Made by a program: the position numbers and the translations under genes. The notes under the pieces were generated by a model that worked only from the letters and a program-made list of their open reading frames with translations, searched no databases and was not told the DNA's origin. A stretch of DNA of 64,000 bases from Eledone cirrhosa. Lineage: Eukaryota. This document shows, one piece after another, positions 44,544-63,414 of this stretch. The stretch lies in contig OZ024761.1 in assembly GCA_964016885.1 (NCBI GenBank), positions 6,820,001 to 6,884,000 of the forward strand. The letters run 5' to 3'. Positions within the stretch are counted from its first letter, which is position 1; each line of letters begins with the position of its first letter.

Positions 44544-44683
44544 TTATTTTGTGCTGAGGTTTGACCCTTTGAACACTTTCTTGATTGCATTCAAAAAATC
44601 TTTCTCCGTTACTTCACGTCTTACTTTTCTGTCTCGGATAGCGAACATGGCAGCTTCTCTGCAAACGTTGCTTATATCAGCAC
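44544..44683 (-). CDS. Paralog C exon 12 ([46 protein letters not shown])
   Basis: Same TTGCAG acceptor context as copy A exon 12; TAA at 44546-44544. Confidence 0.85.
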
Positions 44684-47600
44684 CTGCAATAGGAATTAGA
44701 GGGAGAGAAAGTGAATGTGTGTGTAGCTATTGGTAATATAGTATGTAGTAATGATACATACCACAACCAACAAAACATGTCTGCTCTCCATGTTAGGCAG
44801 GTTGTCACAGTCTGAGTTTAGGCAAGTCAAGAGGCGGATTACACCTTACTATATTACGATCCATATATATACATAAGCTCCAATTAAAGTGTAATAGTAA
44901 TATACATGAATTGCAAAACGTAAGTGAACTGAAGGAGAAACTGGACATAAGAGAGTTCAGAAGCAGTGTGCAGTAGAGGAAATTGAGGTGGTATGGACAT
45001 GTGATGCATATGAAGGATGACATCATCATCATCCTTTAATGTCTATCTTCCATGCTATGGGTTAGACGAGTTTGGTCAGGTGACCGTGTCTTGCTCGTAT
45101 AGAACTGTTTCTGGCTGGTTTTCTGCAGCTAGATGCCCTTCCTAATGCCAACCACATTTACAATGTGGACTGGGTGCTTTTTGTCGTGATACCGCCACAA
45201 CCATTTGTGTGTGGGCTGGATGTTCTGTGGTACCAACATAACTTTACAGAGAAAGGGTGGTGTAGGAGGATGGAGTAGGGGATGTGGGTTGGGGTGTATA
45301 TTGGGTTAAGAGGTGCCTACTGACTGTAGGTCTTCTGTATTACTGCATAGCACCAAAGATCTCGATCCAGTGACATTGTCTTAGAGAGGTGTAAGTGAAC
45401 AAGGTCAGTTTTTATCACCCTGTCCTTTTTTAGACACCTGTCGTCTTTCATGCACATCACGTGACCATACCAACGTAATCTTCTCTCAAGTAAACAACAT
45501 CTCATCCCTCTTATTCCTAATTTCTCACTTAGTTCGTTTACGTTTTGCCGCTCGTGTATATTACTATTACACATTCATCAGAGCATGCATGCTTTGTTCC
45601 TTTCCAGTCTGCACAGGTCCTCGGCACACAATGCCCATGTCTCACTGCCATGTGACATTGCTGTTCGTATGCAAGCATCATACAATCTGCCTTTCATTTT
45701 TAGAGAGAAACTTTTTATGGCCAACAGCGGCATAAGCTCTCTGAACTATTTCCATCCCGTTCTGACTCTGGCCACTGTACTTTCAGAGCACCCTCCTCCA
45801 CTGCTGATTTTGTCACCCAATTAACGGAAAGTGTTTACTATTTCTATAGAACTATCTGGGCAGTTGAAGGAGCTAGTATCCTGTAGGACCTTGCTTCTTA
45901 CTGCATCTGAGCATCAGCCACATATAAAATCTACGTTCTTAGACAGCTTATCTGTGATCCCACTACATCTTTTATGTACCCATAGTTTGCATTTGGGACA
46001 TAAATTGAACTTCTACCTACTCCTTTCCTACACACTGAGCATGACCATTTCCCAAAGGGCACCTGTGCCCTATTTTCCTTTCTACATACTAGAACTTTAG
46101 TCTTAGACAAGTTAACTTTAAGGCCTTTTGATTCTAGGCCATGCTTCTATGTTTGGAATTTCTTCTCTAGTTCAGCCATAGATTCAGCTATGAGAGTTAG
46201 ATCATCTGCATATAGATGTTCCCATGGGCAGCTGGTCTTAAACCCTTCTGTTATAGCCTGAAAGGCAATAATATACAGGAAGGGGCTAAGGATGGAGCCT
46301 TGATGAACACCTACTTTTATGCTAAATTCTTCTTCAAAAGTAACACAAACTTCAAAAAACCCAACAGCCACCTGATTACCTAAAGATCCAGGGAGCTTAC
46401 TAGCCAGATAGATCTTATCCTTATCAGAGGACGAAATAGATGGATGGTTGTAAACACGAAAGCCTTCCCGGGTGAAGAATGTACCTCCCAACACAGCCTA
46501 GTAGTCAGCGATCTCACTGTCAGAGCTAGACGAACTTTGAAACAGAAGGCAACCTGGAGAAGAAAGATCTGGAAGCTGAAAGACCCCTCAGCCAGTAACA
46601 AATTCAGAGATATTTTACTTGACACCTATGACAGTAGAGAAGAACAGATAGAGACATTCAATGTAGAAGAGCACTGGGAGTTCCTAAAAAATAACTTACT
46701 AAAGGCGATGGATGAGATCTGTGGTTGGAGAAAGACCACAAGGAGGAGAGTGACTTGGTGATGGAACAATAAGGTAGATAAGGCAGTTAAGGCTAAGAGA
46801 CAGGCAGGGAAAGAATGGAAGAATGGAGGATGCAGGGTACATTACATAGAGACCAGGAAGGAAGCTAGGCGACAAGTATACTTAGCTAGAAGGGAAGCGG
46901 AGGACAGAAAATTCAAGTATGTTTTGCAGCATGAGGACCAGAAATAGGATTGAGAGGCAGTGTGTCAGAGAGAATTGTGATGTCATTAGAGATAAGTGTG
47001 TCTGGAATGATAATGGTGAGCTTGCCCTCACAAGTTCCGAGAAGAAAGCTGCATGGAAGAGCATTTATGATAGATTATTAAATGATGAGAATGCATGGGA
47101 GAAAGAGACTCTACCCCAAGTGGACCCTATAGAGGGACCAGCAGTACTAGTCGGTAGCAGTGTAGTAAGTAAGGCAATCAAAGATATGAAGACTGGGAAG
47201 GCAACCAGTCCATCGGGTATAGCTGCCGAGATGCTCAAAGCATCTGGGTTGGTAGGTCACACCATAACCACACGTATTGTTAACCAGGTAATACTAGAGG
47301 GTATCATACCAAAAGATTGGTGCAGCAGCATCATTATCAACTGCTACAAGGGTAAAGGAGATGCACTAGATAGAGGTATAAAGCTGATGGACCAGGTTAT
47401 GAAAGTAACGGAAAGAGTTATAGCACAGTTGATTAGGGCCGGGTAAAACTAGATGAGATGCAGTTTGGGTTTGTGTCAGGAAAAAGTACCACTGATGCTC
47501 TCTTCCTTGTGAGGCAGTTACAGGAAAAGTACCTAGCTAAAAGTAAGCCGCTCTACCTGGCATTTGTTGATCTGGAAAAAGCCTTCGACAGAGTGCCCCG

Positions 47601-62600: not shown

Positions 62601-63414
62601 AAATAAAGGGTCTGCTGTATCAAAGACATGTCAACTATCTTAATGCTGGTGCCATGATAAAATGCACTCAGCATAGTGTGGGAACATAGGTAAGTATAGT
62701 GTGGGTGGCTGTTAGGATTTAGGAGGGGTGAGGTTGATACTGGATAGAGTGGAGGTACAGTGCTGAGAATAGGGACAGGGATATTGGTTTGTGGGGAGGG
62801 GTGACATGGTGAATACATTGATAAAGGTGATAGCTACTATGGGGTGAGAGTGGAGAGGAGGGGTGTATGAGGCTGGGTCAAGTCAAGTTCTAAGCTGGAA
62901 GACAGGCCTTCACCAGCATAGTATAGCACCATACCTCATGGTCCTTCATCATCTCTGTTGTGAGGTTTAGCTTCTTAAGATCAGACTTCACTACTTCATC
63001 CCATGTCTTCCTTCCCACCTGAAAGGTCAGTAGCTCCACTTGAGGACTGACTCAGTCTGTTGACCACCTGTCTAACCCTTGTTAACAGGGAAAAATTGAC
63101 ATTTAAATGATGATGATACAGCCTCAATATTAAATATAGAATAACTTACCTTAAGGAAGGTGTTTTCAACTAAATATAGCATAACTCACTTTTAACAAAG
63201 GTGTTTTCAACTAAATACAGAATACCTTACTTTTAACAAAAGTATTTCAACTAAATATAGAATACCTTACCATTAACAAGGGTTTATCAATGACTTCGTT
63301 AATGCTATCAATTTGCTTCTTATATCCACCAACTATTTTCTCAAATGTTTTATCATCCAAGTATTGAGAACTGTCTCTAATCAATGGTGATGATCTATCA
63401 GGCTCTTTTTTAAC
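44544..63414 (-). CDS. PSMC2: Divergent Rpt1/PSMC2-like paralog (copy C), exons 7-12; 5' exons outside the window
   Basis: Exons 63414-63271, 62348-62184, 61006-60919, 54001-53799, 52904-52808 and 44683-44544 join in frame with intact GT-AG and no internal stop. Walker A, Walker B, KYVG and R-S-G-R-L-D-R are retained. Expression is unknown. Confidence 0.85.
45310..46335 (-). mobile_element. RTE-clade LINE 3' fragment
   Basis: [23 protein letters not shown] and RRLRWYGHV. Confidence 0.88.
46400..48780 (+). mobile_element. RTE-clade LINE, 5'-truncated and decayed (RT region)
   Basis: [40 protein letters not shown], Cys-rich insert WPCSVC...C..C..WVHKRC, and HGSETW. Confidence 0.92.
49085..50700 (-). 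mobile_element. RTE-clade LINE fragment (APE endonuclease to RT N-terminus)
   Basis: [34 protein letters not shown] and GKAAGPSGI. Confidence 0.9.
52160..52596. repeat. 54-bp minisatellite, about 8 units
   Basis: Unit CCAGAGGAAAGACAAATGCTAATATACCTTGACCACAGCAGTGTTGGATGTTGT. Confidence 0.95.
52808..52904 (-). CDS. Paralog C exon 11 ([32 protein letters not shown])
   Basis: 97 nt, AG/GT bounded; visible within ORF 52800-52982. Confidence 0.88.
53799..54001 (-). CDS. Paralog C exon 10
   Basis: 203 nt; A>I, K>I, L>I and P>S relative to copy A. Confidence 0.9.
55101..59253 (+). mobile_element. Full-length Gypsy-type LTR retrotransposon, decayed, in intron 9 of paralog C
   Basis: LTRs 55101-55291 and 58982-59253 with TGTGG...CCACA ends; 5-bp TSD GGTTG; purine-rich tract before the 3' LTR. 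Gag has a CCHC knuckle ([14 protein letters not shown]), followed by protease LVDTGC, RT YIDD, RNase H CDAS..AEL..TDS and integrase HHCC plus D,D,E, in PR-RT-RH-IN order. Several stops and frameshifts. Confidence 0.95.
59325..60418. mobile_element. hAT-like non-autonomous element with nested SINE-derived sequence
   Basis: Ends TAGTGGTTCCCAACC / CTTGAGAACTATT resemble the TIRs at 1561 and 2215; absent from the paralogous intron of copy A. Confidence 0.6.
59940..60170. repeat. 51-bp tandem repeat derived from SINE body sequence
   Basis: Unit ACGACCACTTTACAGTGTGGGCTTGGTGCTTTATGTCATGTCACCAAC-like. Confidence 0.9.
60919..61006 (-). CDS. Paralog C exon 9 ([29 protein letters not shown])
   Basis: 88 nt; single E>K change relative to copy A. 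Confidence 0.9.
61362..62035 (+). mobile_element. Non-autonomous Helentron/DINE-like element
   Basis: ACTAG...CCCGGCGTTGCTCGGG start and CAGACAGAC...CTTTATATATATAG end. The empty site is visible in copy A at about 23697 (AAATTT^ATGATAG), with no clear TSD. Confidence 0.75.
62184..62348 (-). CDS. Paralog C exon 8 ([55 protein letters not shown])
   Basis: 165 nt, AG/GT bounded. Confidence 0.9.
63271..63414 (-). CDS. Paralog C exon 7 ([48 protein letters not shown])
   Basis: 144 nt versus 96 nt in copy A; the extra sequence is in frame. Confidence 0.85.

Follow-up and report, generated by a model that had tools for sequence, protein, structure and literature searches.

Known proteasome variants mostly carry swapped 20S subunits or caps. 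The 19S paralogs of the Drosophila testis include Rpt3R, Rpt4R and Rpt6R, and we know of no Rpt1 duplicate in D. melanogaster. Here we describe copy C, a diverged tandem copy of the gene for the proteasomal ATPase Rpt1 (PSMC2) in the octopod Eledone cirrhosa. The window, i.e., the whole stretch of DNA that was analysed, has a length of 64,000 nucleotides (nt) and corresponds to G000:C22:6820001-6884000 of a 3.0 Gb genome. A second ATPase gene, Rpt4 (PSMC6), was found duplicated in tandem on another chromosome.

Several related systems have been described. Drosophila has testis-enriched paralogs of core and regulatory proteasome subunits (PMC6154878, PMC8947704), and amniotes have alpha4s/PSMA8, which gives a germline variant, the spermatoproteasome (PMC13022661). 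In plants, duplicates of 26S subunits are retained long-term; the RPT duplicates show low variability, positive selection is reported in four cases versus 882 genes under purifying selection, and even these duplicate-rich genomes vary least, among other parts, in the ring of six ATPases (bioRxiv 10.64898/2026.09.09.750301). The order of this ring is Rpt3-6-2-1-5-4, HbYX tails are present on Rpt2, 3 and 5, and Hsm3/S5b binds the C-domain of Rpt1; yeast lacking the last residue of Rpt1 and Rpt2, or of Rpt4 and Rpt5, is only mildly impaired (PMC4598862). When the gate is open, the alpha4-alpha5 pocket holds the docked HbYX-like tail of Rpt1 (PMC13022661). Outside the proteasome, the R and S copies of ATP1A1 in Leptodactylus frogs are tandem duplicates whose neutral sites are homogenised by non-allelic gene conversion while replacements are kept (10.1101/2020.08.04.234435).

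On their sequence, Rpt1-C and the Rpt4 paralog (Rpt4b) are best read as variants of these known kinds, i.e., specialised proteasome paralogs and duplicates kept apart against conversion. Like the frog genes, they belong to conserved-ATPase pairs arranged in tandem and in a single orientation, and silent differences survive near replacements. The frog case concerns 12 residues, is seen across five species and is tied to toxin resistance, whereas the replacements described here number 118 and 93, affect two subunits of the same complex and come from a single genome. As in the Drosophila testis set, several subunits are duplicated, 19S subunits are among them and the canonical copies are kept; here two of the six Rpt genes are concerned. 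The Drosophila paralogs are testis-enriched and include many 20S subunits, whereas in E. cirrhosa only Rpt1 and Rpt4 were found, in tandem, with introns, under conversion and as read from genome sequence. The amniote variant alters the core particle, whereas Rpt1-C and Rpt4b concern the ATPase ring, and the retention of subunit duplicates is shared with plants. Compared with canonical Rpt1 and Rpt4, both paralogs have the same domains and ATPase motifs, but only 71% and 76% identity, seven residues lost, insertions of 16 and 15 residues and a charge shifted by +10 and +12, respectively. No report of cephalopod Rpt paralogs was found in the literature outside subscription journals.

Copy C is under selection as a protein

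Three Rpt1 copies lie on the minus strand in the transcription order C, B, A. Copy A is complete within the window (12 exons spanning 18.3 kb). Copy C also has 12 exons, which span 49.5 kb and encode 443 amino acids, and its exons 1-6 lie outside the window. The full paralog was assembled from the flanking sequence, as the sequence-only reading had proposed, and exons 1-6 proved to be intact without any disabling lesion. The frame runs through 443 codons without a stop, and all 11 introns are GT-AG, so that all 22 splice sites are canonical. Copy C is identical to copy A at 301/425 residues. Two length changes are in frame, namely the 48-nt insertion in exon 7, a region that matches nothing elsewhere in the genome, and a 6-nt deletion in exon 3. 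The HbYX-like C-terminal tail of Rpt1 is missing, since copy C stops seven residues short at its junction with copy B, where the alignment is less sure. A leftover of its own tail was sought beyond copy B and not found.

Walker A, Walker B, sensor 1, the KYVG loop and the arginine finger are all kept in the alignment, so the earlier statement that frames, splice sites and these motifs are intact holds, with the qualification that RPGR has become RSGR and the glutamate following KYVG an aspartate. The RSGR form is also present in Rpt5 of this genome. The PRS7-type OB domain in exon 5 reaches 66 bits with PF21236 (cut-off 26.7; copy A 97 bits), and 12/12 PDB matches are to subunit 7. PF00004 scores above its cut-off in exons 8 and 10, and the lid domain PF17862 reaches 32.6 bits in exon 12 vs 29.4 in copy A (cut-off 27.2). 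Two protein-database searches with short, and therefore weak, queries gave 6 candidates for exon 7 and 4 for exon 5, none of which scored as a C-like protein. Copy C shows none of the marks of an unprocessed pseudogene (stop, frameshift, splice lesion or neutral change pattern). To judge from its sequence, it is a derived Rpt1 paralog and not a canonical Rpt1.

Copies A and C were compared over 419 aligned codons, the tail being left out. They differ at 181 bases, which give 118 replaced and 14 silent codons (ratio 8.4). Seven cephalopod Rpt1 proteins (three from octopods, four from one cluster) were used to polarise the 118 differences, of which 100 arose in C and 5 in A, while 10 match neither and 3 match both. 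The protein tree groups A with C, with C as a long branch. In a neutral simulation the same number of base changes per exon was scattered randomly over copy A in 5000 runs. The 181 changes remained stop-free in only 4 and 12 of these runs (p 0.001-0.002). The observed replacements have a mean BLOSUM score of 0.09 vs -0.5 in the simulation, and 0/5000 runs were as conservative. Of the replacements, 36% fall on near-invariant sites, defined from 48 non-cephalopod orthologues of which many are closely related, vs 51% expected. Because stops are absent, changes are conservative and invariant sites are spared, copy C is under selection as a protein.

The codon counts given by the sequence-only reading were reproduced exactly, with 10/0 replaced/silent codons in exon 8, 1/0 in exon 9, 4/0 in exon 10 and 17/1 in exon 11, in sum 32/1. 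The count of 16/2 in exon 7 was obtained again as well, in an alignment that is uncertain there. For the whole gene the pairwise maximum-likelihood omega (dN/dS) between A and C is 1.69 (p=0.021). Exons 2-4 and 8-10 have 27 replaced and 0 silent codons (likelihood-ratio test p=2.6e-4), in a grouping against exons 1, 5, 6, 7, 11 and 12 that was picked after the data had been seen. The earlier view that copy C is intact, is under selection and has more replacements than chance would give is supported. AT-biased mutation was considered as a source of the silent deficit and rejected, as it shrinks the deficit but does not abolish it (p about 0.01).

Homogenised introns and silent sites

The introns beside the replaced exons had been described as nearly identical, with 62349-62510 and 24011-24172 as the example. 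These two stretches indeed have 0 differences, and the identical run extends to 163 nt. As a general statement this is true of some intron blocks, which differ by 0%, but not of others, which differ by up to about 9%, nor of the 5' flank. In 11 alignable blocks, with tandem repeats and intron 6 excluded, mismatches range from 0/692 (intron 2) to 11/128; the pooled divergence is 2.3%, and the blocks are clearly heterogeneous (chi2 70, 10 degrees of freedom, p=4e-11). Within the 100 nt upstream of the ATG 11/97 positions differ between A and C, and the upstream flanks differ by 11-16%.

Among codons for the same residue, silent differences occur at 14/108 in exons 1, 5, 6, 7, 11 and 12 vs 0/182 in exons 2-4 and 8-10 (p=6e-7). 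With a divergence of 2.3% only 1.7 silent codons would be expected in the diverged exons, where 14 are seen (p=3e-9), and even with 8.6% the excess is significant (p=0.004). Over both gene pairs the divergence at exon edges correlates with that of the adjacent intron (Spearman 0.71; 41/42 edges, one being dropped because its flank was unalignable). At 30 edges the exon side has diverged more than the intron side and at 4 edges less, whereas the two sides are equal at 7. We also examined sites at which all seven outgroups agree and copy A differs, omitting the two sites of exon 1. These A-lineage residues are also present in copy C at 8/10 sites in the homogenised exons vs 0/7 in exons 5-7, 11 and 12 (p=0.002). 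Taken together, these patterns argue strongly that non-allelic gene conversion, and not a young duplication, is the best explanation for the near-identical introns.

As in ATP1A1-type duplicates, A/C and the Rpt4 pair lie in tandem in the same orientation, neutral sites are homogenised patchily and neutral divergence is tied to replacements. Since conversion removes silent differences, the raw ratio of replaced to silent codons overstates adaptive change. The greater divergence of exons than of introns, which the sequence-only reading took as a sign of positive selection, thus loses its force as proof, as conversion has patchily erased neutral differences and inflated the ratio. When a neutral copy C was simulated with symmetric conversion, the ratio was 2.7-2.8 and 0/150 runs per setting reached the observed 8.4. 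If conversion goes both ways, selection must therefore keep the residues of C.

Introns 8, 9 and 11 of copy C hold about 14.8 kb more than those of A, in line with the more than 13 kb noted before. Its copy-specific insertions have clean empty sites in A. The long terminal repeats (LTRs) of the intron 9 element differ at 4/192 positions (2.1%), and its Pfam matches stay under the curated cut-offs. In intron 11 a C-only repeat piece (45430-46330) lies 9% from its nearest relative among the best 40 scored of 12,746 candidates. No other dated insertion suggests that the copies split earlier, and this repeat could have been lost from A. The insert in intron 2 of copy C is nested and ambiguous for dating.

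A tandem Rpt4 pair and the layout of the loci

The genome search with Rpt1 gave doubled matches on C2, which turned out to be a tandem Rpt4/PSMC6 pair (G000:C2:77588526-77656989) with subunit 10B as the best solved-structure match. The earlier suggestion to look for fast paralogs of other subunits was thus borne out. Rpt4a and Rpt4b have only GT-AG introns and no stop, and are identical at 295/388 residues. Between the two, 93 codons are replaced and 6 differ silently (omega 3.0, p=7e-5), and exons 2-11 alone account for 66 and 5, respectively. Intron 4 is identical over 760 nt, intron 5 differs at 5/1440 and intron 6, which adjoins the most changed core exon, at 61/789 positions, the block edges being off by up to 6 nt. 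Rpt4b has changed chiefly in its N-terminal coiled coil and in the exon that encodes both pore loops (21/62 codons). Exon 1 opens with a short charged repeat that adds 15 residues. A stop in place of K389 cuts off the seven C-terminal residues, and beyond this stop the former tail can still be recognised. In the neutral simulation the absence of stops has p about 0.04 and the BLOSUM score p about 0.001. Rpt1-C and Rpt4b thus have in common that they lie upstream of the canonical copy, have lost the last seven residues and are more basic.

No full proteasome duplicate was seen among 12 20S loci, Rpn1, 4 JAB loci and 8 PCI matches in incomplete searches. A tandem pair with a PCI domain was rejected as a third proteasome duplicate, as it belongs to eIF3e. 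Its last 110 codons are identical, the first 58 codons carry 10 silent and 6 replaced differences (all within codons 11-58) and the flanks are unlike; the pair may represent either two last exons used alternatively or a duplicated gene that undergoes conversion. With 10 silent and 6 replaced codons in this control, conversion alone does not yield the Rpt pattern there. By reading, an intronless single open frame was labelled a 20S alpha7-like gene (L057:3925-4800, on G000:C9). One exon of a 20S alpha1-like gene (L064) has a fragmentary second copy at L067:5216-5495 (G000:C2:76.78 Mb) with 86% identity. Long single frames of other AAA ATPases, with 454, 447 and 1115 codons, lie at L071:2767-4131, L070:2602-3945 and G000:C4:182.83 Mb, and were ruled out as Rpt copies by their low identity.

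Coordinates of the Rpt1 and Rpt4 copies and associated features. Positions are those of the window unless a contig is given; exons of copy C beyond the window are in G000:C22 coordinates.
Feature	Position	Strand	Remark
Copy C exons 1-6	G000:C22:6914019-6913944, 6907599-6907562, 6905817-6905742, 6905201-6905127, 6900747-6900591, 6892992-6892920	-	
Copy C intron 6	63415..64000	-	leaves the window
Copy C exon 7	63271..63414	-	144 nt; 48-nt in-frame insertion between OB and ATPase domains
Copy C exon 8	62184..62348	-	Walker A, pore-1 loop KYVG
Copy C exon 9	60919..61006	-	Walker B
Copy C exon 10	53799..54001	-	pore-2 loop, sensor 1, arginine finger
Copy C exon 11	52808..52904	-	small AAA domain; 17 replaced, 1 silent
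Copy C exon 12 up to stop	44544..44683	-	last seven residues of the canonical tail gone
Repeat insertion, intron 8 of C	61363..62036	.	C-specific, young; closest genome copies 99% identical
LTR retrotransposon, intron 9 of C	55084..59265	+	C-specific; broken protease and reverse-transcriptase-like frames (gag-pol-like)
Repeats, intron 11 of C	44730..52672	.	about 7.9 kb; this intron has 173 nt in A
Copy B	39751..44550	-	partial duplicate of A: promoter, exon 1, start of intron 1; 2.15-kb insertion
Copy A, canonical Rpt1	18728..37038	-	435 amino acids, 12 exons
Copy A exons 1-6	37038-36963, 32250-32213, 31430-31349, 30808-30734, 29695-29539, 27992-27920	-	
Copy A exons 7-12	25111-25016, 24010-23846, 23342-23255, 22511-22309, 19155-19059, 18885-18728	-	
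Rpt4a, canonical	C2:77588526-77609766		395 amino acids, 11 exons
Rpt4b, upstream paralog	C2:77624888-77656989		403 amino acids, 11 exons
eIF3e last-exon tandem copies	G000:C20:12099356-12099859 and 12113361-12113864		

Copy B is about 99% like A, with more divergence toward its far end, and is fused to copy C at the stop codon of the latter. The junction stretch resembles A's own tail codons, and an AATAAA lies past the stop of C at 44486. Exon 1 of copy B (43633-43558) is identical to that of A and could serve as an alternative first exon for A. In A and B a retroelement fragment precedes the start by about 200 nt (37240-37850 and 43830-44430), and a related fragment near C lies in the opposite orientation farther out, about 440-720 nt upstream of its start. 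In a scan for ARE-like motifs, both canonical copies had a single site nearby whereas the paralogs had none, a signal too weak to use.

Copy A is identical to Rpt1 of Octopus vulgaris at 400/434 and to that of Argonauta at 390/434 residues. This canonical lineage looks accelerated, with 92% identity to O. vulgaris whereas Octopus and Argonauta share 96%. Copy A also has S77 at a site that is otherwise an invariant proline, and S77 is present in C as well. Minisatellite arrays occur within and around the Rpt1 introns (16443-18329, 20582-21977, 28005-29368, 33800-34897, 35610-36183 and 39000-39741), and the array of intron 5 is about 6 kb longer in C. Frames at 9891-11885 resemble what we take to be a Penelope-like element; a 294-amino-acid frame there gave no Pfam match.

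Competing explanations and a possible variant ring

We consider it fairly probable that copy C is a working Rpt1 paralog that has become neofunctionalised and is kept distinct against conversion, and that the tandem duplication behind it is older than the introns would indicate. Duplication gave the two full 12-exon genes in the same orientation, with nearly all amino-acid change on C, and selection has kept C as a folded, open-frame AAA ATPase. Non-allelic gene conversion very probably copies DNA between A and C and flattens introns and silent sites. Tracts that erase the residues of C would be purged, so that replacements persist and silent or intron differences survive only beside them. The same has probably happened at the tandem Rpt4 pair.

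A number of observations weigh against this interpretation. Strictly one-way conversion from C to A, with no selection on the replacements of C, gave in 25 runs per setting a ratio of 5.3 at a nominal c/mu of 50 and of 9.5-32 at c/mu of at least 200. This range is roughly compatible with the intron divergence of 2.3% in the pooled blocks. In exons 8-10 the A lineage has an excess of change (5 vs 0-1 in other cephalopods, p=0.03), which is what leakage from C would give. The least-converted exons have an omega of 1.24 (p=0.40), so adaptive fixation is not separately evident there; the earlier expectation of dN/dS above 1 is thus supported for the whole gene but not for this part. The omega values for C come from pairwise A-C comparisons. 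Of the near-invariant sites 43/235 are altered in C, the junction with copy B stands in place of its native 3' end, two of its three dated insertions (the intron 8 repeat and the intron 9 LTR element) are young, and copy C is known from genomic sequence alone. Genome searches found one locus each, and no duplicate, for Rpt2, 3, 5, 6 and Rpn1. Finally, Rpt1 and Rpt4 occupy non-adjacent positions of the ring. As the two do not touch, the sharing of one particle is not implied by these data.

The one-way simulations bear on the idea that copy C is translated but relaxed, its core being under purifying selection while the periphery drifts and conversion runs almost only from C to A, with no new function. 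Selection on A would then admit silent and intron variants and block replacements, and omega above 1 would be a by-product. Ratios of 5-32 in these simulations and the omega of the least-converted exons agree with this, as do the lineage-specific residues that A shares with C, including S77 (proline in 48/48 non-cephalopod and 7/7 cephalopod proteins). The divergent copy is upstream in both pairs, as a positional bias could bring about. We nevertheless regard this explanation as unlikely, because it requires near-absent A-to-C conversion in two unlinked gene pairs, the symmetric settings reaching only 2.7-2.8. Moreover, a mean omega of 1.2 beside clear purifying selection means that some sites exceed 1, and the change of Rpt4b is concentrated in the pore-loop exon, which is core and not periphery. 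The sequence-only reading had instead supposed a young duplication, with introns 1-2% apart, under very strong positive selection and with no need for conversion. The pooled intron divergence, the 27 replaced against 0 silent codons in six exons and the two young insertions are in agreement with it. However, the 14 silent codons where 1.7 are expected, the heterogeneous intron blocks, the upstream flanks and the A-lineage changes common to C in homogenised exons only make it quite improbable.

A silent or decaying copy, whose frame is open by luck or patched by conversion from A, is improbable as well. The loss of the native tail and 3' end at the copy-B junction, the heavy repeat load of the introns, the failure of the (weak) protein-database searches to score a C-like protein and the knowledge of C from the genome only would fit decay, and a very recent loss of function is compatible with the data. 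But 181 base changes without a stop, conservative and sparing invariant sites, 22 canonical splice sites and an equally intact Rpt4b argue against it. Long identical runs between the copies (692 nt in Rpt1 intron 2 and 760 nt in Rpt4 intron 4) could also suggest a chimeric assembly, or introns polished with reads of the other copy. This is hardly credible, since an assembler cannot keep replaced codons yet erase silent sites in one exon; in addition, the contig has no gap inside either Rpt1 copy, the copy-specific insertions have clean empty sites in A and the pattern is repeated on another chromosome.

It is plausible that rings containing one paralog or both would assemble and hydrolyse ATP, but differ in gating, substrate grip and chaperone release. 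According to the ring order and the yeast tail mutants (PMC4598862), Rpt5 lies between the two subunits that are duplicated, and the tails missing from Rpt1-C and Rpt4b appear to be the more dispensable ones. Both paralogs may substitute for the neighbours of Rpt5 in a variant 19S ATPase ring, which we put forward tentatively. In such a ring the HbYX tails of Rpt2, 3 and 5 and the Rpt6 tail would be kept while those of Rpt1 and Rpt4 are gone, and the OB ring, the pore loops and the chaperone-binding small domain would be altered. It would be used in a restricted tissue. The male germline is the best guess for this site, because Drosophila has testis-enriched core and regulatory paralogs; a host-parasite or toxin conflict may be an alternative driver.

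It is possible, although doubtful at present, that this octopod lineage has a second proteasome motor, for which a single tissue (probably testis) would express Rpt1-C together with Rpt4b, the two taking the places on either side of Rpt5. This ring would have diverged adaptively and be kept apart from the housekeeping ring by selection against constant conversion. It would lack two core-docking tails, be about 20 charges more basic and have a remodelled OB ring and pore-2 loop. The locus is also a warning that in tandem genes a greater divergence of exons than of introns cannot be read as plain positive selection. Conversion may in turn act as a built-in filter, which makes the surviving residues candidates for functional importance, as in the frog ATP1A1. 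With intact frames, omega above 1 and the same tail loss in two ring subunits, the paralogs would be a natural experiment on the surfaces and tails that are needed for assembly, gating and substrate grip.

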